Made by a program: the position numbers and the translations under genes
The notes under the pieces: model-generated
What the model saw: only the letters and a program-made list of their open reading frames with translations
Databases searched by the model: none
What the model was told of the DNA's origin: nothing
In this document: positions 4,653 through 31,445 of the stretch, one piece after another
Numbering within the stretch: position 1 is the stretch's first letter
How the letters are laid out: each line of letters begins with the position of its first letter
Source: a virus
Taxonomy: Duplodnaviria; Heunggongvirae; Uroviricota; Caudoviricetes
Virus record (IMG/VR): IMGVR_UViG_3300027908_000001
Coordinates: 23,167-87,166 of that record
DNA length: 64,000 bases
Direction: 5' to 3' (one strand)

Positions 4653-5026
4653 CGGGCCAGACGCCGCGCCGCAGCCGGGGTAGAGGCCAGCGTGGCCGCC
4701 TTGCCGACAAGTTCGCGCGCTTCCATGACCTTGGCCACCTGAGAGGCTGGAATCGCGACATAGAACCGGACGGCCTGTTCACCGTCCATCTTGTTCAACC
4801 GCTCCTTGGATTTGCGGATTGGAGCGGGCAACGCTACATTCGGGTCTGGCCAGTCGGCGATGAAGGATTTTATGAGTTCGGAGTCCGGCGCGGGCTCGTC
4901 CTCAAAGAGGTTTGGCATCACGAACGGTCCGACATCCGGCAAGATGGCCGTTGCGTGGTCATCCCGACCCACGATACGCCAACCCTCGGGCACGGCTACG
5001 TCAGGCTTGAGTAGTATTGGCGTCAT
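4631..5026 (-). CDS. hypothetical protein (~131 aa; track ORF 4631..5170 trimmed to internal Met MTPILLKP)
   Basis: ORF track; start chosen to minimise overlap with the 1126-aa gene ending at 5001; protein-like composition. Confidence 0.3.
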   Translation of the reverse strand: MTPILLKPDVAVPEGWRIVGRDDHATAILPDVGPFVMPNLFEDEPAPDSELIKSFIADWPDPNVALPAPIRKSKERLNKMDGEQAVRFYVAIPASQVAKVMEARELVGKAATLASTPAAARRLARQRKVTS

Positions 5027-8000: not shown

Positions 8001-8381
8001 GTTGGTCGCCCATTGCTTCAACTGATTCAGCGCGCGGGTCTGCGATGACTTGTTTGTAGAATTTAGCGCCACCTTGAGCTTGTTGTAGGCTGCATCGGTA
8101 ATCCCAAGGTCGTGCGCGTCGGCTCCGTCCACTAGAATAACATCGCCCAGCTTCTTGTAGCTCTCCGCAGTGGCTTGTTGGTCGGCGAAGTAGAGGCCGT
8201 ACCCGTATGCCTGCGCGCCTTCGCCTTCGCCGATATGGGATGAGGAAAACTCCGGTACTAGGTTCGGTGTGCCATGATACGCAACGATGCCGCCAGCGCC
8301 GTCCGATTCCGAGAACCGGCCTTTGTCGTCGTGGTGGACGTTAAACTTGGCGATGCGCCGCAATGTTGCGATGATGTTCAT
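5001..8381 (-). CDS. polyvalent-type giant protein (1126 aa) with C-terminal HExxH zinc-metallopeptidase motif
   Basis: ATG at 8381; motifs FNVHHDDKGRF (N-term), HPRVPKGSAGGGEF, HPRDAKGEFAV; HHEYGHH (HExxH) encoded at 5340..5360; TPEFKAWF...VVYSG...FYAT and SIKNPLD...GYDGI...QIKSAFN modules paralogous to modules in the 1600-aa protein. Confidence 0.65.
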   Translation of the reverse strand: MNIIATLRRIAKFNVHHDDKGRFSESDGAGGIVAYHGTPNLVPEFSSSHIGEGEGAQAYGYGLYFADQQATAESYKKLGDVILVDGADAHDLGITDAAYNKLKVALNSTNKSSQTRALNQLKQWATNTVDVANQRASEYQAKVDAEVKNARERKWTGPVDVEYMHGWGAERKAVPCQEWTASDGARITYWTDTKEYEGNSSTCQNGHAKTFQAIKDMVYKPNEFLEVNLEGVQALKAKADTLLAAVDKGAIAQGHGNMYQVKLAVRPGELLDDDRPLSQQNDSIRSAVKDVLDDVVNKETDFHKASELSRRFQEYDLSDKTGATFYTELSDLLGSPKAASEELKANGIPGLKYLDQGSRVHEPRKDPKTSVWEVDDSMKGTLQFIHEADAKAYYDKAKDRQTHNYVIFDDSRIHITHVNGKDVTKEPAEVAKAMDDMRKSFDEAVHPRVPKGSAGGGEFTSGTSSPAFKAWFAGSKVVDEKGQPKVVYSGQNNAQLYGKGFNPRKSTAGAFYATEDPAIASNYATGKMGVKETYENGDQYRIAGKNGEFNKKLWQITLTPEQAAKAKEFLNREDGVHFDLDKYVADNKDYDKDSRQAFYRGGTKDLFSIFKVMESMGYNIAYADEGEGPFALRQNKSPFEQLLDHIGLKWNAYNWSQPAVFPLYLSIKNPLDGGKPIPKDLMDVLESAVKRKRMPSEDVISDTHWTKEYPLKAWVRDIKEEEATGKETFWATQVPKDALPILQRFGYDGIKDTGGKMGGPTHSVWLAFEPHQIKSAFNRGTWSHEEADIGKAFDPAQHPRDAKGEFAVSGVVPTGSVESARAFVSHFQKLEAAKLDKLKDMTVQELNDQRANMLAVSLWRKKMGMVKPGDSDDVALRFSAGEKAAFTRVLRRWSKTFAGAEADKVTPQFHDDVQKAANKFWNDPSMQRIFEKYGKVPVVVSLSQARPDSKPMDLNTPQAEYMHGNGIVVYDTPQLWGGKISKVNADEPFNVKPGECSVPGDSLEGILHHEYGHHVEDGIESTDIARAQEWRGLYAPYKEDYDAEVEVAMRQQREYIAGGEKPARSLSDIRHETISSYSFDNSKEGFAETFAAVTAPNYKREDFHQRNWPLLEYMEKVVNDANTTQA

Positions 8382-11300
8382 GCTTCCTTGGTCAGCGGTA
8401 TCTCCGTATGCACTCCGGTCGGAGTGGAGAAATCAAGATGTGAAATGGGGATGGCCTTGCCTGCGAACCGGTCGTCTCCGACATACTTGTCCACGAACTC
8501 TGGTTTCAGATATGCAATCGTCATGTGGCCGATGTACTGGCCATCGAAATCGCTCTTGTACGGCAACCGTTTCAGGCGCTTGTTCATCCGGGTCAGCGCG
8601 CCGCCGTAGACCGGGACGTACAGCACGCGGTACTCCTTGCCTTCGCGTTGCGGGAACGATGCAGTCCGGCCGCACACGATGGTGAATGGCTCAAACTTGT
8701 CGGTGATGGCGCGAACGTCGGCAGGGTCTTGCGTATCCAGTCCGTAGAGCACCGTGGCGTGGATGTCTGTCTCGCGTCCGAAGTCCGGTCCGTAACTGTC
8801 GTCCGCGGCTGGCTCCGTGTAAAGCTCGCTGTCCGGTATCGACTTCCCGTACTCCAGAAACGGCTTGGCATCCTCGGGCTCGACCATGGCCATGACGCAG
8901 GACGCCGATAGCTTGGTGGCGTCGCGCTTGGCGAGCGGGGTCGTCAAGTCGGTGTCCTTTCCGTGTAGCCTGTCCCAGAGATAATCCAACTCGAAATAGT
9001 CGTAGGCCGCGTGGTGGCCGCGTGAGCCGCGCCGTACCGCTTGTGCCGTGGTCTCGCCCGGCAGGCCGTGCGTGATTTGAAGCTGCTTGTTTGTCGGGTC
9101 GGGCTTCGTGAAGTCGTAGCCGCGTTTCTCGATGTCCAGCGCGTGCTCGATTTCGTGCCGTATGGTGGACAGTTGGCGCTCCTTGACCTTGCCCTGCCAT
9201 GGCTCTGGACGTGGCAGCCCGATGACGAATTGCAGCGGCTTATTGGTGGCCTTGTCGTACTGGACGGAAATCTCGCCGTGCCGCGTGGACGTATCATGCC
9301 AAACGAACTTCGTAGGAGTCTGGATGCCAAACTTCTTCACATAGAATGCAACCGCCTTAGCCGGGTCGGTTGTGCCGGTTTCCTCGGCCACCAACTTGTG
9401 AATCAATTCCGTGGTGCGCTCGTTAATTGGGTCGTTATCGAACTGCGTCTTGGTCATACCCGCGACCTTTATCGCCGCCGCCTGTACCTCTGGGTCTTGA
9501 AACTTCGGCGCAAACTCTCCCCTGTCATCCCTCGGATGCTCGTCCTCTTCCCATGCCTTGCTGATGTCCGGGCTGTCGGCGTGCGGTGTCGGGTTGAATA
9601 CGGACTTGATTTGCGAAGGGTGGAACGCTATCCACGTGTCGCCGGAGTGGCCCGGCTGCACTTCGTTGCGGCTCGTGTTCTGGTAATGGATGCCGTCGTA
9701 GCCCAGCTTCACCAAGATGTCTTTGGCTTTCGCGGTGTGACGGTCGAGCAAGCCGATGCCGTAATCCTTTGCGAACTCATCCCATGACTCCCAGTTCCCG
9801 TACTTACCGCCGCTGTTGTGGAATCCTTTGCCGGACTGCAACGCGTCCCAGACTTCGCCGTAGTGCTGAATCTTCGCCGGGTCGGTGCTGTTATACGTCA
9901 CGGCCTTGATGAACAGGTTCTTGTCCGCCGGGAACACGACTTTCTCCACCGCGCGCGTGATGGCGTTCTGGTCGAACCCGGTATCTTCCGTGCCGACGTT
10001 CAGCGGGTGCTTGATGCTCAAGTAAACCGGGTACACCGCGCCACCGGGGATGAGCATCCGCACGCTGTAGTCCGGACCGAGCCGGTCGCGCATGCCCCAT
10101 GTGCTGCCGTGTTTGTTCACGTCGTAGGGCTCGACGGCGATGTCGTGGAGGTCTTTGTCTTGCTTGACCAATACCGGCAGACCGTCGTACTTGATTTCTC
10201 CATCCTTGCCCCGGTACCACGATTCGTCCGGATGATATTCGTTGACATGGAAATCTTGGGCGTAGGCGTACTCGCCTGCCGTAAACGCGTTCGGGACAGA
10301 TGGGTCGACGGCGAAGTGGGAGCCGACCTGCGTGTTGAAAAGTGATACGTTGTCCGTCGCGTCGGTCTTGAACTCGCTGAATGCCGCCCGGCTGCCGTGA
10401 TATACAACCAAGGGTTTCCCGTCCGGCGTCACGACCTTCGAGTCCCCGAACCATTGCTTGAATTCGGGCGTATTGGTCAAGTCACGCTTGACCTGCTGGC
10501 CCGGTTCCAAACTGTCGGAGCTTGTTGATATGTCCCGACCTTTCGCATCACCGGCTGCAAACCTTCCCCGCGCATCATGGTTGGGATTCGCCTTCCCCAC
10601 ATCTTCCGCCTCGCCGGTATCCAGCACTTCACCGCCGTCATCGCTCTGGGCGGCTGAGGCTTTTTCTTCGGCCAAGGTGGGCCAAGGATTTCTCGCCAAG
10701 TCTGGGTCTGTAAAGACATTTGTTGGCGGCTCCGTCTCAACCTCTTCATCCGGGCCAAGCTCGTATACGGCCTCCACGGCACAACGACAGTTCTTGACTA
10801 GGAAGCTCTCACACTGGTATAAATGGTACTGTGAAGCTTGGAAATCATACACATGGGTGCTCACCGAAAAATTCCTAATCTTGCTGATTTTGGCAGGCGC
10901 TATGAAGCTGGCGAACCTACCACAAAACTCGCTCGCGCGGCGGGTGTCACCAAGAGAACAATGAACATCCGTCTCCGAAGCATTGGAGTGCGAATCCGCA
11001 CCCCCAGTGAAGCGCAGCTTTTGAAGAATGTCCAATGGGGTCCGCGGAAGCGCCAAAGGATTACCGCTGCTGCTCACGCCGCCAATACCGGCAGAAAGCG
11101 AAGACACATTGAACTTGTCCATATTGCCCAAGGCCGAGAGCGCAACCAAACCCATATCTCCTATATTGAGGCTCCGCTTGCTGCCAGATTGCGGGATGCT
11201 GGCCTTGCGGTTACGCAACAAAAGGCGATTGACAAGTACAATATTGACATCGCTATTGAAGAACCGCGCATCGCCATAGAAATCTGTGGCGGCCAAGGTG

Positions 11301-13180
11301 CCATTTGGAATCGTTACCGCACCTTTTACAGCAAGCGCCTCAAATATATCCTCGACAGCGGTTGGGCCGTTGTAATGGTCTATACCATAGCCGCCCGCCA
11401 TCCCCTCACTGTCGGTTGTGACCAATACATATTCGCCCTCATTGAGCGACTTCGCCTGTCTGTAGCCGGTAGGCGTGAGTACCATGTGATTCGCGGTACA
11501 GGAAAGCCTACGCCCATTAGCAAGATGTATTTCAACCGCAGGCCCGACATAGAATACCTTGGATGCTGCGACGAGGTCTGGAATAATCGCCTTATTGCTT
11601 GGGAGGATGCAATTCGGATGGGCCGGAAACGCGTCTTGGATGTCTGAGATTGCCCAAACTCTTCCGTCGAAGCCATCGCAAATCGGGCATTCGTCAGGAG
11701 TACCAAGCCAGCGAGCCAAGGAAATTCCGTCATTTTGGTATGATGCCAATGCAGCCCGCACTTGTCCTCGCGCAAATTCGGTGCGGGCAATTCTGTCAGA
11801 CTCATACCCGGTCAAATCCTGAAATCGGTCATTGATAATTCCGCCCATTTCCTTGGTGGGAATACCGTCGCTCAATCCATCCACGAGCAAGTCCTTTATC
11901 GAGCTATCAATTCTCGAAAGCGTGCTCTCCGAAAACTTCATCGCATACTCTTGCAGCGCATCTTCCAGCGGCTCTTTGACGGCGGAGGCCAGCGTGTCCT
12001 CGTCTATCTCCAATTCATCGGCGGCGATGGCGATGCCGTCGTCCACCCCGGCCGATTGCGTAATCATCAGCGCGTCGGCCAGTTCGGCAATCGCATCTTC
12101 ACCGGCATCCGGGAAAGCGTCCTGCAGGATGGCTTCGATGTCGAACTCGAATTCTTCCGGGTCGGGTAGGTCATCGTCGTCGGGGTCGTCTTTGGCTATG
12201 CGCGTGAAGGTTTTCCAGACGCGGGCCAGTAGGGACTTGGTGATATCTTTCTCTTTGGGGTCGAACGTGCCGCGGTTGCCGATGGCGGATTTGACCTGCT
12301 CGGGGTCGAACGCCGCGTAGGTGGTAGCGAATCCACTCTTGCTATCCTCATAGAATATTGCGCCGTCGTATCCCAATTTCTTCAGCACACCAACAAATTC
12401 AGCGCCATCCTTGTCATCGAAAAACTCCCAGTAGTTGGAGGCGTTCCTGTAATAGGATGGATTCAGGCCAGCGCCCTTCAACTCATCAAGCGTGTCCTCA
12501 TCAAATCCATTGCGTAAATCCAGCGGGGACTTGATGTTCATGTAAACCGGCATGACGTTGGTGCCGGGTTCTTCAGGGTTAATATATTCCTGAGCGAACT
12601 TCGGATTCTCGGTCGCGAATATGGCACTGCGCTGAGTCTCGAAGTTACCAAAAAATCCGTAGTTATTGATGCTCTTCCTGCCGACTTCAAATGTGCTGAA
12701 ATCCCCCTTGGTTGCATGGAACAGTTCCAGTGGCTTGCCGTCTTTCATGACCACGGATACCGGCGGCAGACTCGGGTCGCGCTTGGACGACCATGCGTGC
12801 GGGTCTTGCCAGTCGCCGAACCAAGCTTTGAACTCTGGTGTTGTAGTCTGCGAAGCGAACTCACCGCCGCCGGTCGCGCCTTTCGGATTCCGTGGATGCT
12901 TGGATTCATCCCACGCCTTGGCAATCCGGCCGAGTAACGACTTCTTGACCGGCACCGGCGGATGCTTGGCGAGCGCTGCCAGTACGCGACCGCGCCACTT
13001 CGCGAACACTGCGGCGATGGCGGCCTTGCCAGCCTTTAGTCCGGGCTCATCTTCAAAATGCGGGGCGTCCTTGGCCTTGGAGATGCACGTCCGGCATCCA
13101 CACGCCGTCAGCGAGATGCGACATTCATGGACGGCGTCGAATAGTTCTTGGGCTTCGGCTTTGGAGAGTCGAACTGGCAC
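8378..13180 (-). CDS. polyvalent-type giant protein (1600 aa) containing a MuF/SPP1-gp7-like head-morphogenesis domain interrupted by an intein
   Basis: Track ORF with GTG start at 13180; MuF-like block RIARTEFARGQ...WLGTPDECPICDGFDGRVWAISDIQDAFPAHPN|C...N|CRCAVEAV; HPRNPKGATGGGEF, NPNHDARGRFA, EHPRDDRGEFA motifs; two copies of the TPEFK(A/Q)WFGD...(Y/F)H(G/A)(S/T) and (S/N)IK(H/S)PL...GYDG(A/I)...Q(I/V)KS(A/V) modules. Confidence 0.7.
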   Translation of the reverse strand: MPVRLSKAEAQELFDAVHECRISLTACGCRTCISKAKDAPHFEDEPGLKAGKAAIAAVFAKWRGRVLAALAKHPPVPVKKSLLGRIAKAWDESKHPRNPKGATGGGEFASQTTTPEFKAWFGDWQDPHAWSSKRDPSLPPVSVVMKDGKPLELFHATKGDFSTFEVGRKSINNYGFFGNFETQRSAIFATENPKFAQEYINPEEPGTNVMPVYMNIKSPLDLRNGFDEDTLDELKGAGLNPSYYRNASNYWEFFDDKDGAEFVGVLKKLGYDGAIFYEDSKSGFATTYAAFDPEQVKSAIGNRGTFDPKEKDITKSLLARVWKTFTRIAKDDPDDDDLPDPEEFEFDIEAILQDAFPDAGEDAIAELADALMITQSAGVDDGIAIAADELEIDEDTLASAVKEPLEDALQEYAMKFSESTLSRIDSSIKDLLVDGLSDGIPTKEMGGIINDRFQDLTGYESDRIARTEFARGQVRAALASYQNDGISLARWLGTPDECPICDGFDGRVWAISDIQDAFPAHPNCILPSNKAIIPDLVAASKVFYVGPAVEIHLANGRRLSCTANHMVLTPTGYRQAKSLNEGEYVLVTTDSEGMAGGYGIDHYNGPTAVEDIFEALAVKGAVTIPNGTLAATDFYGDARFFNSDVNIVLVNRLLLRNRKASIPQSGSKRSLNIGDMGLVALSALGNMDKFNVSSLSAGIGGVSSSGNPLALPRTPLDILQKLRFTGGADSHSNASETDVHCSLGDTRRASEFCGRFASFIAPAKISKIRNFSVSTHVYDFQASQYHLYQCESFLVKNCRCAVEAVYELGPDEEVETEPPTNVFTDPDLARNPWPTLAEEKASAAQSDDGGEVLDTGEAEDVGKANPNHDARGRFAAGDAKGRDISTSSDSLEPGQQVKRDLTNTPEFKQWFGDSKVVTPDGKPLVVYHGSRAAFSEFKTDATDNVSLFNTQVGSHFAVDPSVPNAFTAGEYAYAQDFHVNEYHPDESWYRGKDGEIKYDGLPVLVKQDKDLHDIAVEPYDVNKHGSTWGMRDRLGPDYSVRMLIPGGAVYPVYLSIKHPLNVGTEDTGFDQNAITRAVEKVVFPADKNLFIKAVTYNSTDPAKIQHYGEVWDALQSGKGFHNSGGKYGNWESWDEFAKDYGIGLLDRHTAKAKDILVKLGYDGIHYQNTSRNEVQPGHSGDTWIAFHPSQIKSVFNPTPHADSPDISKAWEEDEHPRDDRGEFAPKFQDPEVQAAAIKVAGMTKTQFDNDPINERTTELIHKLVAEETGTTDPAKAVAFYVKKFGIQTPTKFVWHDTSTRHGEISVQYDKATNKPLQFVIGLPRPEPWQGKVKERQLSTIRHEIEHALDIEKRGYDFTKPDPTNKQLQITHGLPGETTAQAVRRGSRGHHAAYDYFELDYLWDRLHGKDTDLTTPLAKRDATKLSASCVMAMVEPEDAKPFLEYGKSIPDSELYTEPAADDSYGPDFGRETDIHATVLYGLDTQDPADVRAITDKFEPFTIVCGRTASFPQREGKEYRVLYVPVYGGALTRMNKRLKRLPYKSDFDGQYIGHMTIAYLKPEFVDKYVGDDRFAGKAIPISHLDFSTPTGVHTEIPLTKEA
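10790..11611 (-). other. Hint-domain intein (274 aa) inserted in the MuF HPNCRC motif
   Basis: N-extein ends ...FPAHPN, intein begins C(11611..11609)ILPSNK..., block-B-like GRRLSCTANHMVLT, C-terminal block HVYDFQASQYHLYQCESFLVKN(10792..10790) followed by extein Cys (10789..10787) RCAVEAV; removal regenerates HPNCRC, the canonical MuF motif. Confidence 0.5.
10838..11647 (+). CDS. HTH + DUF559/Vsr-like PD-(D/E)xK endonuclease-domain protein, encoded antisense inside the intein
   Basis: Track ORF (TTG at 10838; first ATG at 10853); HTH-like TTKLARAAGVTKRTMNIRLRSIGV; DUF559-like block YNIDIAIEEPRIAIEICGGQGAIWNRYRTFYSKRLKYILDSGWAVVMVY (cf. family pattern D-x-a...vvEiDGgqH...D..R...L...GW.VlRf). 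Confidence 0.45.
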   Translation: MEIIHMGAHRKIPNLADFGRRYEAGEPTTKLARAAGVTKRTMNIRLRSIGVRIRTPSEAQLLKNVQWGPRKRQRITAAAHAANTGRKRRHIELVHIAQGRERNQTHISYIEAPLAARLRDAGLAVTQQKAIDKYNIDIAIEEPRIAIEICGGQGAIWNRYRTFYSKRLKYILDSGWAVVMVYTIAARHPLTVGCDQYIFALIERLRLSVAGRREYHVIRGTGKPTPISKMYFNRRPDIEYLGCCDEVWNNRLIAWEDAIRMGRKRVLDV

Positions 13181-13194: not shown

Positions 13195-13860
13195 TTACGG
13201 CTCTTTGTGGTAGGAATCAATCTGTTCTTGGTCGGATTTGGAAACGCCGTTCAGGGACGCTTGGAATCGAGCGTCAAGGTCGTCCTTCATCTTTTGCGGC
13301 AAAGTCGAATAAGAGTCCTCAGTGTGCCCCTGCCGCGCCAAGAACGATGTCCTTGCGTCGTTACTATCGATGGGGGCCACGCCGCCGCGCCGCTCGCTGC
13401 CATGACCGCCTGCATCTTTGGCCTTACCCAAAAACTCGCTGGCCGTCTTGCGCACCGGCGACGGTTTGTCAATGACCTCGGCCCACTTCGATTGCCAGTC
13501 ATCGAACGACTTACGGACCCGGCCTGATATGCCGAGACACTTGGTTGCGGTGCTGTGGAGCGTTGAACCCAACTGGAAACCCGCGTCGGATTTCAGGAAC
13601 TCGACGGCCTTGGATTCGGTAATGCCACTCTTAATGAGACTTGACACTACCAAATCATCGTAACGCGCGTCCCTGACGGCCTTGAAGAACCCTCCACCGG
13701 CTTCGGCACGTAGGCGCTTGGCGAGGTTCTGGGATTCAAAGTGACGGTGGACGGGCGTCGGCAGCCTAGGCGCGGGCGCACCCGACACCTTGGCGACCGG
13801 CTCGAACGTCGTCTTGAGGTTGTCAAAAGATTTGAATATGCCGCTGAATTTCCCGCTCAT
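13195..13860 (-). CDS. hypothetical virion-associated protein (221 aa) with KAKDAGGHGSERRG motif
   Basis: Track ORF, ATG at 13860, TAA at 13195..13197; shares KAKDAxGHGSxxRG motif with 14451..17699 and 19745..20458. Confidence 0.45.
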   Translation of the reverse strand: MSGKFSGIFKSFDNLKTTFEPVAKVSGAPAPRLPTPVHRHFESQNLAKRLRAEAGGGFFKAVRDARYDDLVVSSLIKSGITESKAVEFLKSDAGFQLGSTLHSTATKCLGISGRVRKSFDDWQSKWAEVIDKPSPVRKTASEFLGKAKDAGGHGSERRGGVAPIDSNDARTSFLARQGHTEDSYSTLPQKMKDDLDARFQASLNGVSKSDQEQIDSYHKEP

Positions 13861-13862
13861 AG

Positions 13863-14141
13863 TTATTTCCTTGTCAAATCAAACGGCAATAGTACCGTGT
13901 CGGCTATAGCGCTGAACGGCATGTCCAGCAGGATTATCGGCGTTAGAAAAATCCTGTCAGCGGTATCCTCGCCATTGTGCGGCGACCATGTGTCGTGAAC
14001 GAATTCCGCGTCCAGCCTCACGCCCGCATAAACGCCGGTCTGGTATGGAGCTTTGCCGGAATCGTCCGTCAGGTCGGTGTGAGCCAAGAACGTGCCGCAG
14101 CCGGTCATGGCCAGCAGCAATATGGAAACCAACACCCTCAT
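13863..14141 (-). CDS. putative lipoprotein (~92 aa; track ORF 13863..14342 trimmed to Met MRVLVSILLLAMTGC)
   Basis: Signal peptide plus lipobox-like AMTGC; start trimmed to minimise overlap with upstream gene. Confidence 0.35.
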   Translation of the reverse strand: MRVLVSILLLAMTGCGTFLAHTDLTDDSGKAPYQTGVYAGVRLDAEFVHDTWSPHNGEDTADRIFLTPIILLDMPFSAIADTVLLPFDLTRK

Positions 14142-14449
14142 TTGCGTTTCTTCCACGCGGGCTGCTCGGCTTGCGGTTCGGAATGCCCGACCGTTACATT
14201 CTCTTCGTTGGATGTTTGGTCGCCTCCCCAGACGCGATATGTATGCGTGCCTTCGGATACCGTGGAGTCCACGAAACTGCTCTTGACCGAGGACAACACG
14301 AAGCTGTTGGCGTTCCCGGCAGTCGTGGCCACGTTGCGCCAAACGTTGCCGACCTTCTCATCGATATGCCAGCCCGATGGCGTGAAGTCGGCCTTCCAGT
14401 TCAGCGCTACCTGACCGGGTTGCGTGGATGCCGCTGTGAGTGTTATCAT
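14138..14449 (-). CDS. small Ig/FN3-like beta-sandwich protein (~104 aa; trimmed from track ORF 14138..14596)
   Basis: MITLTAASTQPGQVALNWKADF...SFVLSSVKSS...THTYRVWGGDQ pattern resembles FN3/Ig-like; ATG abuts stop of 1082-aa gene. Confidence 0.3.
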   Translation of the reverse strand: MITLTAASTQPGQVALNWKADFTPSGWHIDEKVGNVWRNVATTAGNANSFVLSSVKSSFVDSTVSEGTHTYRVWGGDQTSNEENVTVGHSEPQAEQPAWKKRK

Positions 14450-14450
14450 G

Positions 14451-17400
14451 TTAGACTTGGCCGCCGGATTTGACGATGTTCTGCATGCGACCGAGTAGGC
14501 CAGCCGGTTTTTGGCCTGACTTGGATACCGAATTATCCGGGCCGGTCTCGTGGGCATAATAAACCCCTTTGTCGGTAGAAACCATTGCCATGCCAAGCCT
14601 GTTATTTTCGTGGCCGATTACGGTTGCTGGTCCGGAGTAGCTATCATGGTCGTTTACACTCACTTTGGTGCCGACAGGATATTTATTCCGTAATGCGTCC
14701 AGAGCACTAGCGGCTCGCGCACGCCTTTCCGAGCCATGTCCACCCGCATCCTTGGCCTTCGCAAACGCCGCAATGACAGCCATCGGGTCCGAATCATCGA
14801 CCGGTCCGGTCGTCTCGTTGTCCAGATTATCCCCGGCTTCCCATCCGCAGGCCGAGCATACAAACACTCCGCCTACGCCGTTGTCCGTGTGGTCCATCGT
14901 GCCGCCGCAGTTCGGGCATACGACCTTGTCGGCTTGGCCGGTCGATACGTTGACCGCACCGGTGTTGCCGGAGAAGGTCTTGGCCAGTTCGAGCGCCTTC
15001 TCCACTTCGTGCGAGTCGTCGGCCTTTTCAACGAATGCTGAAATGGCATCGGAATCTGAAACTGTCTTACCGACGTGCTGCGCTATGCTACCGGCAATGC
15101 GTTTGGCGGAATCTTCGGAGTATCCCTTGGCCTGCATGTACTTCACCGCGTTGTCGAACCGTTCGCCGGTCCCGGCTTCACCTTTGAAGTGGCCGCCTTC
15201 CGTGTACTTCGATTCGGCGTCGTCGGACTTAACAACCACTGCATCCTTCGCCTTCGCCACGTGCGCCGCGCTCGTTAATTCCAGTGCCTTGCCGATGGCG
15301 ACTGGCTTGCCGCTCCGGCTCTTGTACAGGTCGAAATCGAAATCATCCGTGTCATCCCAGTCCGCGCTCTGGCCCAATTGCGCGCAGATGTCCTTGGCTT
15401 CGTAGGGGTCCATGGACTGGTCGGTAACGAGGCTGCTCATGCAGTCGTCCATGCTGGAGAATTCGCTGGCGTCGGCGTCCTTGCGAACCACGACCGGCTT
15501 TGACGCCTTGGTCAGGCCGACTAATGCGCCCATGAATTTCAGTGTCTTGCCGATGACCCGTTGCCCCGCCGTCTCGTGCGTGGGCGTGACGGCTTCCATT
15601 TCCTGCTTGGTGCGTTCCATAATTTCTTGATTCCTCTCCGCTTCGGTCGGGCGCTGGTCTACCTTGATGACAATTCTTTCGGATTGAAGTTTTTTGATTG
15701 CCCGGTTTATCGTGGCGATGTCTTTGGGCACGCTCATGCCGCTATCCCGTAGACCCTCAAGCGCCTTTATTTGTGCATCGGTTCCGGGTGCTCTATTTGC
15801 CGCCCAAGTAATGGCGGTGCCGACTGTCATACGGCTTTGCTTTTCTTCCTCGGATTCTTCCCCGCGCTTATTCGACCCGTGCCCAAGAGCATCCTTAGCC
15901 TTGCTCACGTCATCGTCATCCACGCTGTCCATATCGTAGGCTTCGTCGTTGCTCTCTCCGCAGGCCGGACAGACTGCCGCGCCGCCGCTGACCTTCGCGT
16001 CGGACATCGATGCGCCGCAGTTCTTGCACTTCCATGCCTTCTGGACCGGGGCAGTCGGAGCCGCCGGTTGCGTGGCCTTCCCACCTCCGCCGCCGGACGT
16101 ATCGCCCGTGTCGTCATCCCATTCTTCCATGTCGGAGGTCTTGCCGCAGGAGCCGCACTTCAGCGCGTCGCCTTGGAATTGCACTTTGTCCGGCATCTGG
16201 CCGCACGCCGGGCAGTTCGATATGGATTTACCAATTTGCACGTCACCCATGGTAACGCGGCTGCCATCGGACTTGTGAATCACGACTGCCACCACGATAC
16301 CATCGGCATTCGCCACCTCGGTTCGCATTGCCTTCTCCACGCTCTTGTCCGCGCCCGGCCAGCGACCAAGGTACTTTTTGTGAAGGGCAGCACATAAAGC
16401 GTTCGGGTCAGATACGCCACTCATCGGCGCTATTTCTTTGACGCAATAGTTGAAAAATCCTCCATCATCCTCGCGCTCTTGGGCCGTCTTGTGCTCGCCG
16501 TCGGCCTTCTTGATGCCGCGCTCGGCGTTATACATGGCCTCGCCCTTCTGGTGCGCGGTCTGGAATTCGTCGCTCTCCAGTTCGTTACTCGCCATGTGAT
16601 GCTGAATCGCCGCCTCTTTGATTGCCGGTGCCGCCCACGCCCGCTGAGCCTCCATAGCCTTGTAGTGGTCGTTGTTGACGCTTTGAACCCTGTCCAAGTA
16701 CCCGTTCCAATCCAGTTTGCCTGCCTCGGCGTCACGGTGGATACGGCCCATACTGTAATGCATGGCTGCTTCGGCTGAGTTGAAGTTGGCATGATGCGGG
16801 TCGTTGTTGGCGCGCGCTGCGAGCGCCGCCTGACCATAAGCCTTGCCTGCATCCTCGTTCGACCGGGCCGCTGCCGCATGCGCGCCGCGGTCGTCGAATC
16901 GTGGGCTGAGCGCTCGCGAGGTATCTTCGGTGGCAATGTTACCACGCGTAACCGCCAAAGCTGATAGCGCTTCGGACTTCTCGCCGAGCCGGTCGCCACG
17001 CTTATTGCTGCCATGGCCCTTGGCATCCTTCTCTTTAGAAACCTGCACGATGGCCTTGGCCAGCGCCGTGTCCTCATCCGTGACCCGGATTTTCAGCAGC
17101 TTCATGTTGTGCTTTTCCATCCGGTCGGCGCAGCTTGGGCAAATCTTCGCGATGATGGCTATCGGGACTCTCAGGACAATGCCTTCAGTAGCCCTAGCTT
17201 TGTTCACCGCGTCTTGAAGAAGAACAGCACGTGCGTGTTCATCCAAGTTCTTGAAAATATCGTCATCATCCCACAAGGCATCCTGACCGAGCTTGTCGCA
17301 AATGTCGGACGCTTCACCGTAATCGTGGCCGTTGTCCTGAATCATCGTGGTCATACATTGCTCGCGGTTCTCGAAGTCAGTGGGCTCGGCACCGTCGCTG

Positions 17401-17699
17401 TCCTCGTCCCAAATGTCTTTGCGGAGCAGCGACTTTTCCAGCATCTCCACCGTCGGCTCAATCAAGGCACCAGCCTTGGTGACGTTGGCCGCGTCCTGTA
17501 GTCCAAACACCTTCGAGGCGATGGTGCCTGCCTCATCGGGCGTGTACCCGAAACTGACGAGGTAATTCTTGCAGCCGTCGAACCCGGACTTGAACGTACC
17601 GTCCGGGTTCAGGAACTTCGCGCGCGCGCCTTCCAGCGACACCTTCGCAATCTTCTGCTCATCCGACAATATGAGGTTCTTGAACATGACCAATTCCAA
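14451..17699 (-). CDS. large zinc-ribbon-rich structural/internal protein (1082 aa)
   Basis: Track ORF (TTG at 17699; first ATG at 17687); four CxxC...CxxC zinc-ribbon pairs (CPSCADR, CPACGQ...CGSCGK, CKNCGAS...CPACGES, CPNCGGT...CSACGWE); three KAKDAxGHGSxxRG motifs; internal repeat (EQCMTTMIQDNGHDYGEASDICDKLGQDALWDDDD / MDDCMSSLVTDQSMDPYEAKDICAQLGQSADWDDTDD). Confidence 0.6.
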   Translation of the reverse strand: MELVMFKNLILSDEQKIAKVSLEGARAKFLNPDGTFKSGFDGCKNYLVSFGYTPDEAGTIASKVFGLQDAANVTKAGALIEPTVEMLEKSLLRKDIWDEDSDGAEPTDFENREQCMTTMIQDNGHDYGEASDICDKLGQDALWDDDDIFKNLDEHARAVLLQDAVNKARATEGIVLRVPIAIIAKICPSCADRMEKHNMKLLKIRVTDEDTALAKAIVQVSKEKDAKGHGSNKRGDRLGEKSEALSALAVTRGNIATEDTSRALSPRFDDRGAHAAAARSNEDAGKAYGQAALAARANNDPHHANFNSAEAAMHYSMGRIHRDAEAGKLDWNGYLDRVQSVNNDHYKAMEAQRAWAAPAIKEAAIQHHMASNELESDEFQTAHQKGEAMYNAERGIKKADGEHKTAQEREDDGGFFNYCVKEIAPMSGVSDPNALCAALHKKYLGRWPGADKSVEKAMRTEVANADGIVVAVVIHKSDGSRVTMGDVQIGKSISNCPACGQMPDKVQFQGDALKCGSCGKTSDMEEWDDDTGDTSGGGGGKATQPAAPTAPVQKAWKCKNCGASMSDAKVSGGAAVCPACGESNDEAYDMDSVDDDDVSKAKDALGHGSNKRGEESEEEKQSRMTVGTAITWAANRAPGTDAQIKALEGLRDSGMSVPKDIATINRAIKKLQSERIVIKVDQRPTEAERNQEIMERTKQEMEAVTPTHETAGQRVIGKTLKFMGALVGLTKASKPVVVRKDADASEFSSMDDCMSSLVTDQSMDPYEAKDICAQLGQSADWDDTDDFDFDLYKSRSGKPVAIGKALELTSAAHVAKAKDAVVVKSDDAESKYTEGGHFKGEAGTGERFDNAVKYMQAKGYSEDSAKRIAGSIAQHVGKTVSDSDAISAFVEKADDSHEVEKALELAKTFSGNTGAVNVSTGQADKVVCPNCGGTMDHTDNGVGGVFVCSACGWEAGDNLDNETTGPVDDSDPMAVIAAFAKAKDAGGHGSERRARAASALDALRNKYPVGTKVSVNDHDSYSGPATVIGHENNRLGMAMVSTDKGVYYAHETGPDNSVSKSGQKPAGLLGRMQNIVKSGGQV

Positions 17700-17792
17700 T
17701 TACCGCAACAACAGAATTACCACGACGATGACCAGCAATAGACCGGCCCCACCGCCGACATAAAACGCACTCGCTAATAGAGGTGCAAACAT
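17700..17792 (-). CDS. possible 30-aa hydrophobic peptide MFAPLLASAFYVGGGAGLLLVIVVVILLLR (below track length cutoff)
   Basis: Manual translation; ATG 17792..17790, TAA 17702..17700 abutting start of 1082-aa gene; single TM-like segment. Confidence 0.2.
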   Translation of the reverse strand: MFAPLLASAFYVGGGAGLLLVIVVVILLLR

Positions 17793-17807
17793 TGTATTCC
17801 GTTTCGT

Positions 17808-18392
17808 TTACTTGTTGACCGATTCGTGAACCGCTACCGGCACCGGCGATTGTGCGGCGACCGGCCTGAAAACTATACCTAATATCAATCCGATAATAGT
17901 GCAGACAACGCCCACTCCAGCAATCATGTAAGCGACTGTTGCGGATATACCTTCTCCTCGCCCCTTGGTAAGCGTGCGAGAATCTTTCAGGTCGGCAATT
18001 GAGTCCAGTGAAGCCTTGTTGTTCTGCTCGATGCGCGCCGTAAGATTGGCCTCGACGGCATCGATTTTTTCTTCCATCGACTTATGCTGGACGGTATATT
18101 CATTGCGAGGCAAAAATGTGGATGTCTGGTCCGACAACTGCGCCCGAAACTCATTCACTGCATCGAACCTTTTTTCAGTAGCGGTATCGGCCTTGGCGAT
18201 GGCCTTTTCGGCGTTGGCGAAAGCCTGTTCGCTTAGTGATTTCTGTGCGGTCAACGCCAATTCCACGGATTTGGTGGATTGAACGGAGCGCTCTTCGTAT
18301 CGGCGGTCGCGTTCGTCCATAAGTCTTTCAAAGCCATCGATTCTGGCAATCAAAACCCCTGTGGACATTTCCGAATTTTCTTTCTCGCTCAT
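17808..18392 (-). CDS. coiled-coil protein with C-terminal transmembrane anchor (194 aa)
   Basis: Track ORF; long heptad-like region then hydrophobic tail VAYMIAGVGVVCTIIGLILGIVF. Confidence 0.4.
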   Translation of the reverse strand: MSEKENSEMSTGVLIARIDGFERLMDERDRRYEERSVQSTKSVELALTAQKSLSEQAFANAEKAIAKADTATEKRFDAVNEFRAQLSDQTSTFLPRNEYTVQHKSMEEKIDAVEANLTARIEQNNKASLDSIADLKDSRTLTKGRGEGISATVAYMIAGVGVVCTIIGLILGIVFRPVAAQSPVPVAVHESVNK

Positions 18393-18394
18393 TT

Positions 18395-18874
18395 CTAAGC
18401 CTTAACCTCGGAAGGACCGGGCAAAAGAACTGGACCATCTGCTTTGCGAATCTTGTGCGCAGCAAAAATTTCGTTGAGGTGCGCTACATCCAGCGGCTTC
18501 ATGAGTAGCCCGAAATATCCAACCTTGGCGGCCTTGTTCAGGCATTCGCTATCCGGGCTGTCGGCGATTAGTATCACCGGCACGCCAGCCAGTTTCACCT
18601 TTAGGAATCGAAGCGTCTCGACAATATCTATATCGGTCACGTTCAAGTCCAGAAACAACAGGCTTATTAGCCTATCCCGACCAGCCGATGTTTCAGTGTC
18701 AATTATTGTCCTGAACATCTCCCCCGTTGTGGCCGATAGGACGTTACAGCCATATTGATTCAAGACATTGGCTATCAGGACCAGCGTTTCTGTTTCGCTC
18801 TCGACCACTAGCACTCGCGGTGTCTTATTCATCGCAATAACGGCTTCATCCACGAATTCAAGCACTCGGTTCAT
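18395..18874 (-). CDS. standalone response-regulator receiver (REC/CheY-like) domain protein (~159 aa; track ORF 18395..19009 trimmed to Met MNRVLEF)
   Basis: PRVLVVESE...LNQYGCNVLSATTGEMF...ISLLFLDLNVTDIDIVETLRFLK...VPVILIADSPDSECLNKAAKVGYFGLLMKPL: acidic pocket, phospho-acceptor Asp in LFLDLN, conserved T/K positions; no output domain. Confidence 0.5.
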   Translation of the reverse strand: MNRVLEFVDEAVIAMNKTPRVLVVESETETLVLIANVLNQYGCNVLSATTGEMFRTIIDTETSAGRDRLISLLFLDLNVTDIDIVETLRFLKVKLAGVPVILIADSPDSECLNKAAKVGYFGLLMKPLDVAHLNEIFAAHKIRKADGPVLLPGPSEVKA

Positions 18875-18881
18875 AGAGGCG

Positions 18882-19250
18882 TCACCGATGGAGAAATCCT
18901 CCCGCCAATATCGCCAGTATTGCCGCCATGATAACACCTCCGGCCCATGCCGCAACGGCCCATCCTCCTGTAAAGAAAGTCCGTTGCCGTTTGAACTCTT
19001 CCACGTCATTGCTCATCGCAAACTGCTCGGCCAATGAGCGGCGCGCCTCGTGGTTCAGACGTATCACCACCTGAATGAACCAGTCCTGTTTCTGTCCGGC
19101 AATGTCCACGGCCTGAATCATGTACCGCTCGGATTCTGTGGCCGATGCCAGCAAGTGTTTGGGCACACGACAATCGAAGCGCGGCGTTTGCGTTATCTCC
19201 GGCAGCCGCGCGTCCAGTTCGTTCCGTTGGTCCTGTGTCAGCTCACCCAT
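18882..19250 (-). CDS. tail-anchored membrane protein (122 aa)
   Basis: Track ORF; C-terminal WAVAAWAGGVIMAAILAILAGGFL hydrophobic segment. Confidence 0.35.
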   Translation of the reverse strand: MGELTQDQRNELDARLPEITQTPRFDCRVPKHLLASATESERYMIQAVDIAGQKQDWFIQVVIRLNHEARRSLAEQFAMSNDVEEFKRQRTFFTGGWAVAAWAGGVIMAAILAILAGGFLHR

Positions 19251-19280
19251 GTCGATGTCCCCGTTATCGTTTGTGAATTG

Positions 19281-19562
19281 TTAATGATGACTGGCCGTGA
19301 CTGGCACCAGTTCGGGCTTGTCCTCAAACGTTCGGCGTAAAAACTGCCACCATTTCGGACGGGTCCAACCTTTGGCCTTGGCCTTCTCGATAAGCTCGGC
19401 CCTTGCTGATGCCTCACTCACACATCCGGACACCTCCGCCAATTCCCAAATACCATCCCGGGAGTTCCACCATTGCAATCTGGCGCTATACGCCGTGAGC
19501 AATGGTGCCACCACCGCTGCCGGATGTAGTTTGGTTTTTACAGGATGCCGATGGTGTACCAT
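19281..19562 (-). CDS. hypothetical protein (93 aa)
   Basis: Track ORF, same strand, tight spacing. Confidence 0.25.
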   Translation of the reverse strand: MVHHRHPVKTKLHPAAVVAPLLTAYSARLQWWNSRDGIWELAEVSGCVSEASARAELIEKAKAKGWTRPKWWQFLRRTFEDKPELVPVTASHH

Positions 19563-19744
19563 TTTACTTGCCTTCGCCGCTCTGTCCGTGCGAAATCCCT
19601 AGATTAACCCCGCCCTGACCCGCATTGAAATGCAGACCGATACCGCAAATCCAGCAGAGCGCCACGACGACGATTACCGCGAGGATGATTTGTACGATTC
19701 TGTTCTGGAATATGTTATGCCACATAATGCTCGATACCTTTCGT

Positions 19745-20458
19745 TTACCGCTTTTTTCGACCGTGACCGAACTCGAACCCGCGGTTCAGCGCCTTGCCGA
19801 TGTCGTCGGAGGCATTATCGGAAATTGTGCTCATGGCATACTGGCGCTCGCCCGGTGCCATCTTGGACCATTGCTCTTGGGCGTCAGCTTGGGCCATCTT
19901 GGAATCCACCATGCGGCCTGCCTTGGCGTGGGCCTTGGCTTCCTGCATTTTGGATACGTAGGCATCGGACCGCGCCGACTTGCTGCCCGGCACTTTCTGG
20001 TTGCCGTGGAACCAGCCTTTGCCAGCCTTGCCGATGCGCTCACCGATGGTGCCTAGCATGCGGAGGTTCGGTGAGAATGTTTTTCCAATCTTTCCACCGG
20101 CATTGCGAACATCGGCGTTGGCCTGCGCCGCTTCCTTGCTGGCGAATACCTGACCGGTAGAACCATCCTCGTGCTTTACCGTATGACGTTCGTCGTCAGG
20201 GTCGTCGGTGAGCTTTGATGGACTCCATGGGCCTTTCTCGCCGCGCGCTTCCTTGGCTGCGTCATCCTGTCGGCTGTCATAGTGCCAGTGGTCGGAGCCG
20301 CCGGACTCGGACGATGCTGTCATGCCTCGTTTTTCACTCCCGTGTCCCTTGGCATCCTTCGCCTTCGCTACGGTAGATTGGTGGACCTGCTGCAATACAG
20401 AGAGTTTTTGAAAGATGGTTGCCATAGGTAGTGCGCTCGTCGTTGTGTGCTCTACCAT
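19745..20458 (-). CDS. basic, low-complexity protein (237 aa) with AKAKDAKGHGSEKRG motif
   Basis: Track ORF; shares KAKDAxGHGSxxRG motif with two other window proteins; Lys/Ala/Gly-rich. Confidence 0.4.
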   Translation of the reverse strand: MVEHTTTSALPMATIFQKLSVLQQVHQSTVAKAKDAKGHGSEKRGMTASSESGGSDHWHYDSRQDDAAKEARGEKGPWSPSKLTDDPDDERHTVKHEDGSTGQVFASKEAAQANADVRNAGGKIGKTFSPNLRMLGTIGERIGKAGKGWFHGNQKVPGSKSARSDAYVSKMQEAKAHAKAGRMVDSKMAQADAQEQWSKMAPGERQYAMSTISDNASDDIGKALNRGFEFGHGRKKR

Positions 20459-23938: not shown

Positions 23939-24137
23939 GGCGGGTCATCCACGACTCGTTGCAGTGAATCCATGTAATGGCCAGCCGCTAGGCCATCTAT
24001 CTCACCCCCGCACTTGGTACAAGCAATGTTGGCCCCGCCGTCCGCTGCCTCGAAGTTGTGCGGGAACTTGCAGTCACCGAGTCGGCGCTTGTTGGCATCG
24101 TCGTGTACGGCCTTGGCGGATTCACCGGCGAGCGCGC

Positions 24138-25139: not shown

Positions 25140-25318
25140 TAGTGTAACAGTAAAAAGGTTCCAAATCCGACACACGCCGCAACGATTGCCGTGACAAAAA
25201 TCGCGAATGCAAAAACCTTGGCGGCCCGAATGAACCCAAACCAGCCCGCGGTATAAATAAAAATTCCCAAGAACGGAATTCCAAGCAACAAGATGCCAGC
25301 GATGTGTTGCATCATCAT
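25139..25318 (-). CDS. small 2-TM membrane protein (59 aa; below track cutoff)
   Basis: Manual translation MMMQHIAGILLLGIPFLGIFIYTAGWFGFIRAAKVFAFAIFVTAIVAACVGFGTFLLLH; ATG overlaps TGA of upstream gene (ATGA). Confidence 0.3.
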   Translation of the reverse strand: MMMQHIAGILLLGIPFLGIFIYTAGWFGFIRAAKVFAFAIFVTAIVAACVGFGTFLLLH

Positions 25319-26025: not shown

Positions 26026-26026
26026 G

Positions 26027-29326: not shown

Positions 29327-29327
29327 G

Positions 29328-31437: not shown

Positions 31438-31445
31438 GCTGTCCG

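Follow-up and report, generated by a model that had tools for sequence, protein, structure and literature searches.

A virus-specific leader peptide on otherwise unrelated phage protein modules and its possible role in head cargo

Three genes in a 64,000-nt stretch (the window) of a tailed-phage genome from IMG/VR encode proteins that contain the motif KAKDAxGHGSxxRG. What is the function of a motif shared by proteins with so little else in common? Six-frame translation of the window gives five copies, spread over the three minus-strand genes and in the coding frame only. One is in a 221-aa protein (LGKAKDAGGHGSERRG, aa 144-159), three are in a 1082-aa protein (VSKEKDAKGHGSNKRG, aa 220-235; VSKAKDALGHGSNKRG, aa 598-613; FAKAKDAGGHGSERRA, aa 979-994), and one is in a 237-aa basic protein (VAKAKDAKGHGSEKRG, aa 30-45). 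The original prediction had located all five, and its sole discrepancy is the leading residue of the 221-aa copy, which was written as A, where the sequence has G. The features are collected in Table 1.

Table 1. Proteins and junctions of the window that bear the motif or related leaders. A slash marks the junction, directly after its Lys.
Feature	Position	Strand	Description
520-aa protein	2743..4305	minus	GxF-type leaders HLQK/SNPNHDERGRF (near N-terminus), HPRGEHGKF
1126-aa ART-PolyVal protein	5001..8381	minus	GxF-type leaders RIAK/FNVHHDDKGRF, DMRK/SFDEAVHPR, DIGK/AFDPAQHPRDAKGEF
1600-aa polyvalent protein	8378..13180	minus	ART-PolyVal, MuF, intein, 2H ligase-like
221-aa protein	13195..13860	minus	conserved N-module (aa 4-146), leader junction, variable 60-aa C-module
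Junction and leader copy 1	13384..13431	minus	L-G-K/A-KDAGGHGSERRG; 221-aa protein
1082-aa mosaic protein	14451..17699	minus	three leader junctions and zinc ribbons
Junction and leader copy 4	14718..14765	minus	F-A-K/A-KDAGGHGSERRA; 1082-aa protein
Degenerate junction	15240..15257	minus	V-A-K-A-K-D-A, without GHGS; aa 815-820, 1082-aa protein
Junction and leader copy 3	15861..15908	minus	V-S-K/A-KDALGHGSNKRG; 1082-aa protein
Junction and leader copy 2	16995..17042	minus	V-S-K/E-KDAKGHGSNKRG; 1082-aa protein
237-aa basic protein	19745..20458	minus	29-aa N-part, leader, conserved C-module
Junction and leader copy 5	20324..20371	minus	V-A-K/A-KDAKGHGSEKRG; 237-aa protein

A degenerate DNA pattern for KDAxGHGS matches the window five times, compared with 0.00 matches in 100 dinucleotide-preserving shuffles. 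Together with the restriction to the coding frame, this rules out chance or low complexity as the origin of the motif and agrees with the earlier view that it is too specific for chance. The codons of the five copies differ synonymously, with both serine codon families in use, and in a set of 164 distinct sites they vary at all of the invariant positions, again with both serine families represented, so conservation at the DNA level is also ruled out. In BLASTP comparisons among the 221-aa, 1082-aa, and 237-aa proteins, each alignment with E < 0.01 covers a motif site, and none is found away from these sites. The three proteins are thus otherwise unrelated, as had been claimed. They have no recognized effector domain, and only zinc ribbons are seen.

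The motif is widespread in phage sequences. The pattern X-K-D-A-x-G-H-G-S-x-x-[R/H]-G occurs in contigs from viruses and metagenomes, at no fewer than about 370 distinct sites. IMG/VR contains 77 loci with 215 leader sites in 168 distinct ORFs, and a metagenome scan gave at least 118 loci and at least 206 distinct leader sites. A search of metagenomes with inspection of the context had been proposed, and it shows that the motif is predominantly N-terminal, since 195 of the 206 sites (95%) among the metagenome matches listed lie 1-2 residues past the start codon. A Shine-Dalgarno-like sequence is present at 90/106 N-terminal leader starts, compared with 13% at random positions, and at 70/106 of these starts there is no alternative upstream start. 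By comparison, 185,579 bacterial and archaeal species genomes contain 41 pattern matches, of which only seven, in five loci, are N-terminal motif sites. Among the 164 distinct sites, the H and S of the motif are invariant, and R-G is frequent. A second short motif, AHxxG[VI], is present in 34/114 small leader proteins.

Known families and cultured phages do not account for this peptide. Pfam, PHROGs, and NCBIfam scans of about 60 motif proteins gave no family match over the leader, and blastn and tblastn searches of cultured phages with the region, the 221-aa protein, the consensus leader, and one array protein gave no match. A profile of five 44-aa motif segments gave only 9 marginal hits among 5.8 billion proteins, because 14 residues are too few for a significant match in so large a search space. 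These 9 hits are again small proteins with an N-terminal MKDA or MAKDA followed by GHGS. A PDB profile search gave chance matches only, the query being an HPR-type alignment and not the GHGS leader. No paper containing the motif strings was found, and the literature on processing of polyvalent proteins and on Lys-specific prohead proteases yielded nothing specific. The leader peptide is an undescribed, virus-specific sequence that starts hundreds of otherwise unrelated phage proteins.

In the window, the leader is found inside proteins, at the boundaries of modules. An orthologue of the 221-aa protein (436 aa, from locus L079) has 39% identity to it over aa 4-146 (E 3e-26), and the alignment stops at the junction; homology is absent from the module downstream. 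In place of the GHGS leader, this orthologue has LIAK/NNPYHATDGKF. The 237-aa protein shows the reverse arrangement, as its L079 orthologue (391 aa, with a ferritin-like N-module) has 39% identity over aa 28-235 (E 4e-44), the alignment begins only at the leader, and the motif is retained. For the 1082-aa protein, the site homologous to the copy 2 junction, the first of the three, is GRW-type in the relative P0012 and GTSEG..WETR-type in P0013 and P0014. The copy 3 leader and its downstream module are found again in P0011 and P0012 behind other upstream modules, and the copy 4 junction is kept in P0011 as IAKEKDAKGHGSNKRG. Cassettes of a leader and its module have thus been shuffled between the 1082-aa protein, P0011, and P0012. 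No relatives of the 221-aa and 1082-aa proteins were found in IMG/VR, and a single cassette of leader and module gave no match in a word-index search.

These comparisons show that, in the window and its relatives, modules have been fused into mosaic proteins in which the leader moves with the downstream module, and that the GHGS leader can be swapped for an HPR..GxF-type or GTSEG..WETR-type leader at the same junction. Loss of the motif in homologues had been named as evidence against a function. We found that the 237-aa orthologue keeps it, and that the orthologue of the 221-aa protein and one junction of the 1082-aa protein have a replacement. Replacement by another type of leader argues for interchangeable leaders, and not against function. 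The GxF motifs in the neighboring giant proteins are also similar to it, as predicted, since both types have the register hydrophobic-x-K/[A/S/E]-[K/W/F]-[D/E]-x-x-x-H-[G/P]-[S/R]-x-x-[R/K]-G. The 1600-aa polyvalent protein has HPR/GxF-type leaders in the GHGS register, and at about 13037-13084, near aa 34, it has SKAKDAPH, a degenerate form of the motif.

An AlphaFold2 model of the 1082-aa protein, obtained with three sequences, has a mean pLDDT of 37.5, which is too poor to assign linker status. In this unusably poor model, the motifs are in low-confidence coil beside better-predicted blocks.

Since module boundaries match the motif exactly and cassettes are shuffled between relatives, the motif might be a DNA recombination joint for cassette exchange, with no function as a peptide. 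However, synonymous codons are free at each invariant residue, including AGY and TCN for serine, and the peptide is kept across contigs of 37% and 65% GC. With this codon diversity, the exact DNA homology is too short for recombination, so this explanation is largely refuted, and we consider it very improbable.

Outside the window, the leader is most often found on small separate proteins. Stand-alone leader genes occur in arrays of up to 11, and the bodies that follow the leader are mostly unrelated; the 8 genes of one array (L048) fall into 8 BLAST clusters. Among the bodies are ART-PolyVal and Arr-type ADP-ribosyltransferases. In at least 8 loci, the arrays lie 1.3-4 kb upstream of terS-terL-portal and are co-oriented with these genes. 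By portal similarity, the nearest cultured relatives of the array phages are Pseudomonas phage NP1 and phage PhiJL001; the latter, with a portal about 45% identical, lacks the motif as well as the arrays. In the window, the units are fused, and the leader thereby becomes an internal junction. Early expression of the small leader genes, with an incidental position beside terS, could count against the reading of their products as cargo.

The residues immediately upstream of the leader suggest how it may be exposed. At 12/12 GHGS junctions of the window and its relatives, positions -4 to -2 are hydrophobic-x-K, compared with a background of 3.8%, and the residue after the Lys is A, E, S, or T in all 12. 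This is similar to the site of the HK97 head protease, which cleaves K103/S104 in the sequence F-N-K/S; that site fits the hydrophobic-x-K/small residue pattern of the 12 junctions checked. HPR-type sites follow a looser upstream rule, with K/R immediately before A-W-D-E in 27/77. In T4-like contigs, every leader listed has hydrophobic-x-E ending one residue before KDA, and the GHGS leader stands directly behind CTS-like peptides such as MKSFKELFE and MKSFLTYLKE. These endings match the gp21 cleavage rule, L/I-x-E (PMC9026906), and the end of the T4 CTS, MKTYQEFIAE (PMC8442874). Furthermore, internal GHGS copies of two loci (L068 and L028) are within head-maturation protease proteins, the modules of the 1082-aa protein are fused elsewhere to Peptidase_S78 or S78_2 prohead proteases, and proteins with an S78, S78_2, or DUF2213 protease also contain the motif or these modules. 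Neither a prohead protease nor a major capsid protein is among the ORFs scanned in the 64-kb window of the ~197-kb contig.

We hold it to be about an even bet, judging from sequence comparison, that KAKDAxGHGSxxRG represents, in the window, a phage-specific leader of cargo modules that is exposed by head-protease cleavage and retains the cargo in the head. A head-maturation protease would cut after the junction Lys, as the HK97 protease does at F-N-K/S, or, in T4-like contigs, after hydrophobic-x-E, a gp21 site, with the same leader following. In each context, the mature N-terminus would be X-KDAxGHGS. We suggest, more weakly, that the exposed leader could then be the shared feature through which unrelated kinds of cargo are recognized and kept in the procapsid. 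The leader might dock on the capsid interior, the scaffold, or the protease, with the cargo held until ejection into the host. The original prediction was that the motif targets proteins to the virion or marks a cleavage site for their incorporation, or that it is an epitope for a common partner. It is supported in part, since the MuF and ART neighbors, the prohead-protease fusions and copies, and the upstream residues favor a link with the head and with processing. The cleavage signal itself is to be placed differently, as the apparent determinants are directly upstream and the motif is the head of the downstream module.

Alternatively, the motif could stay uncleaved and, as a short linear motif of disordered termini and linkers, dock unrelated phage proteins on one non-capsid partner, either a host hub or a phage enzyme, with the fusions staying intact. 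Its position at termini or between modules is typical of docking motifs, and it is accompanied by AHxxG[VI] in the small proteins noted above. In addition, a CTS-like leader already precedes the motif in T4-like contigs and would give capsid targeting there with no need of the motif; the cultured relatives Melnitz and S-RIM4 have the CTS-like leader but not the motif. However, docking of intact proteins does not account for the invariant hydrophobic-x-K (hydrophobic-x-E in T4-like contigs) that ends just one residue before the leader, for the near-N-terminal placement of 95% of the metagenome matches listed, or for the association with MuF, prohead-protease, and portal genes. We regard this explanation as unlikely.

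Post-translational modification at the motif, such as Arg ADP-ribosylation by the co-encoded ART-PolyVal enzymes, or Ser/His phosphorylation, is a still less probable explanation. The abundance of ART-PolyVal domains beside motif proteins and among the small leader proteins would be in keeping with this, as would the invariant H and S and the frequent R-G, but the HPR..GxF and GTSEG..WETR leaders do not have the same candidate acceptor residues, and there is no ART gene among the annotated gene clusters of the T4-like loci.

Could the motif cleave itself? Known autoproteolytic sites include H-F/S and H-L/T, and by analogy, G-H-G-S, with His at -2 and Ser at +1, might be cleaved at H-G/S by an N-O acyl shift, with no protease involved. 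Among the metagenome matches listed, however, mostly just 7-8 residues precede this site, so there is no folded domain able to strain the H-G/S bond, and the HPR and GTSEG leaders do not have the H-x-S/T/C arrangement. With most copies having no upstream domain, and the interchangeable leaders no nucleophile, we think autoproteolysis highly unlikely.

How would a leader exposed by a head protease compare with known systems? The T4 CTS, MKTYQEFIAE (PMC8442874), is a short N-terminal peptide on unrelated, diversifying proteins of neighboring genes that sends them into the prohead core (PMC3012670, PMC8442874), and the prohead protease removes it at L/I-x-E (PMC9026906). The GHGS leader is similarly an N-terminal peptide common to unrelated products of neighboring genes, although it is internal in the window. 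KDAxGHGS is unrelated to MKTYQEFIAE in sequence, and whereas the CTS is a propeptide that is removed, the GHGS leader would stay on the product after the predicted cut. It also occurs outside T4-like contigs and as an internal junction, and packaging of the proteins that bear it is a prediction. In the giant phages phiKZ and SPN3US, many internal or ejected head proteins are cut by a gp21-like protease at a short Glu-ending motif. This resembles the processing proposed here, but the motif is a different one, and the cited portion of PMC9026906, from which these statements are taken, mentions no conserved leader on the product side.

In the HK97 capsid, the segment ELIKSWDGKQGTFG of the scaffolding (delta) domain, just upstream of the cut, forms a helix-turn-strand and docks on the capsid interior. 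It resembles the K-[AS]-W-D..G-x-F type of leader, a likeness with a single sequence that may be due to chance. Moreover, the HK97 docking segment is upstream of the cut and is degraded, whereas the GHGS leader is downstream of the predicted cut. Polyvalent proteins combine between 2 and 15 domains with effector or structural roles, including ART, MuF, and metallopeptidase domains, in one polypeptide. Iyer et al. 2017 (PMC5512222) proposed that they are packaged and processed and that they are delivered when the host is invaded. A term search of PMC5512222 for its mentions of motifs returned neither a linker nor an HPR motif. A polyvalent protein was detected in the virion proteome of phi24B and was proposed to be packaged inside the capsid. 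The 1600-aa and 1126-aa neighbors in the window are members of this group, and stand-alone leader proteins have ART-PolyVal bodies. The difference is that the same domains here also occur as arrays of single-domain leader genes.

A broader proposal, which we advance only tentatively, is that the GHGS, HPR..GxF, and GTSEG..WETR sequences are interchangeable, portable cargo tags of 13-20 residues in diverse tailed phages, which would load arbitrary proteins into the head by docking on the inner face of an HK97-fold capsid or on its scaffold or prohead protease. Docking might occur by strand addition, as for residues 86-97 of the HK97 delta domain. The arrays would then be fast-diversifying libraries of injected anti-defense effectors, and the polyproteins would be fused libraries that are cut by the head protease.

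If the leader does mark cargo that is packaged in the head and injected, a 9-residue pattern would flag hundreds of candidate effectors in uncultured phages, including ADP-ribosyltransferases and many bodies with no assigned function. This would bear directly on the question of which proteins a phage sends into the cell alongside its DNA. The giant polyvalent proteins and the arrays of small accessory genes would be the fused and unfused forms of one modular system, and a short portable tag, together with predicted protease sites, would be available for protein delivery by phage heads outside T4.

The motif KAKDAxGHGSxxRG, originally predicted to be shared by three proteins, is present in all three genes, and its five copies (here GHGS leaders, general form X-K-D-A-x-G-H-G-S-x-x-[R/H]-G) are where they were said to be. 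The spellings given for the copies were right but for one letter, since that of the 221-aa protein is GKAKDAGGHGSERRG, not AKAKDA.... Almost every gene in the window, a segment of a phage genome, is on the minus strand. A degenerate DNA pattern for K-D-A-x-G-H-G-S has 5 matches in the 64 kb, compared with 0 in 100 shuffles, and six-frame translation of the window confines the peptide to the coding frames of the three motif genes. Synonymous positions vary among the five copies. Wherever BLASTP aligns any of the three proteins with another at E < 0.01, the alignment runs across a motif site.

Positions of the window features discussed in the text
Feature	Position	Strand	Content
520-aa protein	2743-4305		HPR..GxF motifs
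Polyvalent protein	5001-8381		ART-PolyVal
Polyvalent protein, 1600 aa	8378-13180	minus	ART-PolyVal, MuF/SPP1 gp7, intein, 2H ligase-like domain
Intein of 1600-aa protein	10790-11563	minus	Pfam Intein_splicing, aa 540-797
269-aa ORF	10838-11647	plus	
221-aa protein	13195-13860	minus	one GHGS leader
1082-aa protein	14451-17699	minus	three GHGS leaders
194-aa protein	17808-18392		
204-aa protein	18395-19009	minus	receiver domain, Pfam Response_reg, E 4e-11
237-aa protein	19745-20458	minus	one GHGS leader
Portal	54787-56340		
Large terminase	57712-59247		

Polyvalent-class giant proteins adjoin the motif genes on the downstream side. The HPR..GxF motifs noted earlier in this region were found in both polyvalent proteins and in the 520-aa protein. 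Side-by-side comparison gives a register common to these and the GHGS leader, hydrophobic-x-K↓[A/S/E]1-[K/W/F]2-[D/E]3-x-x-x-H7-[G/P]8-[S/R]9-x-x-[R/K]12-G13, where the arrow marks the junction, and there is a shorter form, K↓x-N-P-x-H-D-x-[R/K]-G-[R/K]-F. Given the common register and the 16 junction-peptide sites counted between window positions 438 and 20344, the GHGS peptide is, by its sequence, one variant within a larger junction-peptide family.

The opposite-strand 269-aa ORF sits inside the intein-coding stretch of the 1600-aa MuF polyvalent protein. By eye it resembles an HTH plus Vsr/DUF559-type endonuclease, and a PDB sequence match was looked for and not found; such a predicted antisense homing-endonuclease arrangement in an intein would be unusual. 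An H-E-I-E-H (HExxH) stretch at about aa 1320 of the same protein, for which there is no supporting profile match, may be a candidate zincin-like metallopeptidase, an enzyme type suggested to carry out polyvalent-protein processing. The 204-aa receiver-domain protein is located between motif-bearing genes and is adjoined by the 194-aa protein, which by eye has a coiled-coil look and a C-terminal hydrophobic segment. The stretch separating the motif region from the head genes holds several predicted glycosyltransferases, and the window also has two HNH endonuclease genes (23042-42729; 45074-45838; 59987-60910 for these features together).

A single database entry, from a contig of about 197 kb, is identical to the 1082-aa protein, and P0011-P0014 are distant homologues. 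Synteny with the window is seen in L079, a related contig of 176 kb. Its 436-aa orthologue of the 221-aa protein aligns over aa 4-146 (39% identity, E 3e-26), and the alignment ends at the junction, LIAK↓NNPYHATDGKF in the orthologue versus LGK↓AKDAGGHGSERRG in the 221-aa protein, after which the C-modules are unrelated. For the 237-aa protein and its 391-aa L079 orthologue, the alignment begins no earlier than the leader (E 4e-44), and their N-modules are unlike, 29 aa in the former versus a ferritin-like domain in the latter. When the 1082-aa protein, P0011, and P0012 are aligned, the leader always moves with the downstream module, and the cassette 'GHGS leader + EEKQ..MT..INWAA..LEGLRDSGMSVPKDI' is found behind three different upstream modules. 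At the first 1082-aa junction, with a conserved module upstream, the window has VSK↓EKDAKGHGS, P0012 has VAK↓FNPEQERDEHGRW, P0013 has VSK↓SGTSEGVKLSWETRRG, and P0014 has VAK↓SGTSEGAHKGWETRHG. A third leader type, hydrophobic-x-K↓[A/S]-G-T-S-E-G-x-x-K-x-W-E-T-R-[R/H/K]-G, takes the GHGS leader's place at homologous junctions in P0011, P0012, P0013, P0014 (at least 4 copies), P0016, P0026, and L079 (10001-14773). These junction comparisons indicate that the leaders are interchangeable heads of mobile modules, and the fused proteins look like stand-alone genes in concatenated form.

A scan of IMG/VR with a back-translated pattern gave 77 loci, with 215 sites in 168 distinct ORFs by a slightly relaxed peptide pattern, in three contexts. 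About two thirds of the sites are 1-2 residues past the start codon (M-KDA.. or M-A-KDA..) of small proteins (median 128 aa), whose genes follow one another in arrays of as many as 11, on contigs with a GC content near 60%. A Shine-Dalgarno-like sequence is found at 90 of 106 of these starts, versus 13% at random positions, and 70 of the 106 have no alternative upstream start. About 40 sites are behind a 9-10-residue peptide, for example MKSFKELFE↓A or MKSFLTYLKE↓E, on contigs of about 40% GC that are T4-like Kyanoviridae by gene order and closest cultured relatives; the bodies here comprise a cytidylyltransferase-like protein and a DUF6267 protein in which a ligase-like KxDG motif can be made out by eye. 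The third context, internal sites like those in the window, accounts for just a few. Metagenome contigs, scanned independently, gave at least 118 loci; among the matches listed, 195 of 206 distinct sites are N-terminal, and single loci hold up to 7 sites. Bacterial and archaeal genomes, one for each of 185,579 species, gave 41 pattern matches. Since only 7 of these are N-terminal, in five loci of Alphaproteobacteria, Hyphomicrobiales, and Binataceae metagenome-assembled genomes, the peptide is essentially virus-specific. Codons are diverse at each invariant residue, both serine codon families included; thus, selection acts on the peptide.

By BLAST, the bodies inside one array are mostly unrelated (8 genes in 8 clusters in locus L048, 7 in 7 in L008), and 236 bodies from the IMG/VR and metagenome collections fall into 53 clusters. 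Only three of the 34 body representatives scanned match a Pfam family, two as ART-PolyVal and the third as an Arr-type ADP-ribosyltransferase. In one ART-PolyVal leader protein, the domain match starts at residue 31, placing the leader about 20 residues upstream, and by eye GxF-type leaders are similarly close upstream of ART domains in the window's giant proteins. The array lies 1.3-4 kb upstream of terS-terL-portal, co-oriented, in at least 8 loci, and in L014 a protein with a GRW-type leader at its start follows the portal. Of 114 leader proteins, 34 also contain another short motif, A-H-x-x-G-[V/I]-x-x-[V/I]-G, versus 1.4 expected from shuffles; its start falls at residues 10-16, immediately after the GHGS leader, in 22 of these 34 (small leader proteins of IMG/VR L008, L034, L048, and L063, for example).

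The motif genes have MuF-containing polyvalent proteins as neighbours, and a polyvalent protein was found in the phi24B virion proteome, where packaging within the capsid was proposed. The 1082-aa protein contains three small, helical, Cys-containing modules (aa 17-59, 385-473, 824-909; e.g. EGHFKGxxGTGERFxNCVKYMxxKGYSxxSAKRIC) to which no family is assigned. They reappear elsewhere joined to Peptidase_S78 or S78_2 prohead proteases (P0018, P0021, P0024, P0031), at prohead-protease C-termini, and as separate phage proteins of 65-180 aa. In L068 and L028, the internal GHGS copies are within head-maturation protease proteins (S78_2; DUF2213/phrog_12864). A portal-MuF fusion carries HPR-type leaders, and such leaders are also found after an S78 protease domain and ahead of ART domains.

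In the window and its relatives, 12 of 12 GHGS junctions have hydrophobic-x-K at -4 to -2 relative to K-D-A (background 3.8%), and the pattern returns at GxF and GTSEG junctions. In HK97, the model for Peptidase_S78 prohead proteases, a 103-residue scaffolding domain is removed at K103/S104; the cut site, T-F-N-K↓S-L-G-S, is hydrophobic-x-K↓S, and the scaffolding domain (L219 4028-4400) reads ..EELIKSWDGKQGTFGAKTFNK↓SLGS. T4 gp21 is described as cutting after L/I-x-E (PMC9026906), and the T4 capsid targeting sequence (CTS) is MKTYQEFIAE (PMC8442874). Every leader listed from the T4-like contigs has hydrophobic-x-E at -4 to -2 (LFE↓A, LKE↓E, FKE↓A, LTE↓K, IKE↓A, LLE↓A). The change from K in the window and its relatives to E in these contigs indicates that the residue before the identical downstream peptide shifts in step with the protease specificity that is known or expected for the lineage. 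M-A-KDA and M-KDA starts come under the ordinary methionine-removal rules at the start codon. The predicted cuts and start-codon processing would each leave exactly one residue ahead of K-D-A-x-G-H-G-S. Mainly because all routes converge on this one residue, we infer from sequence that the head protease would cut just upstream of the leader.

What is the function of the leader itself? It is probably more than a scissile site, because the cleavage determinants seem to be upstream of it. The T4-like contigs already have a CTS-like peptide ahead of the GHGS leader, and cultured T4-like relatives have a CTS-like leader without GHGS; thus, GHGS is not the sole possible route into the head. We favour a handle that would lie on the product side of the cut and serve in recognition or retention; this is the weakest step of the account. 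The HK97 delta-domain segment ELIKSWDGKQGTFG (the KSWD..GTF stretch), a helix-turn-strand that docks on the inner capsid surface by adding a strand to the P-domain sheet, resembles the K-[AS]-W-D..G-x-F (HPR/GxF) leaders, a single-sequence likeness that may offer a lead to the leader's role. In Melnitz (L078 4923-9586) and S-RIM4 (L123 2791-3939), cultured T4-like Kyanoviridae, adjacent genes start with the CTS-like MQGFKTFLSEA, MKKFSEIIEA, and MKKFSAFLSEA. They include a cytidylyltransferase, and the records annotate only hypothetical protein or cytidylyltransferase; the CTS-like starts suggest that these enzymes may be head-packaged cargo.

In the motif proteins scanned, the leader is overlapped by no model from Pfam, PHROGs, or NCBIfam, and the motif strings do not occur in the literature searched. 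A PDB search with the related HPR-type profile, rather than the GHGS leader, matched no chain, and the part of the polyvalent-protein paper of Iyer et al. 2017 (PMC5512222) covered by a term search has no mention of the linker or HPR motif. The best explanation, which we judge about equally likely to hold or to fail, is that the GHGS leader would serve as a cargo leader and protease junction in phage head proteins. Of its parts, head-cargo association is the most secure, cleavage comes next, and the docking role is the least secure. Although the leader is not a sequence member of the T4 CTS, such a system would work like the T4 CTS with its internal-protein loci, and like polyvalent proteins.
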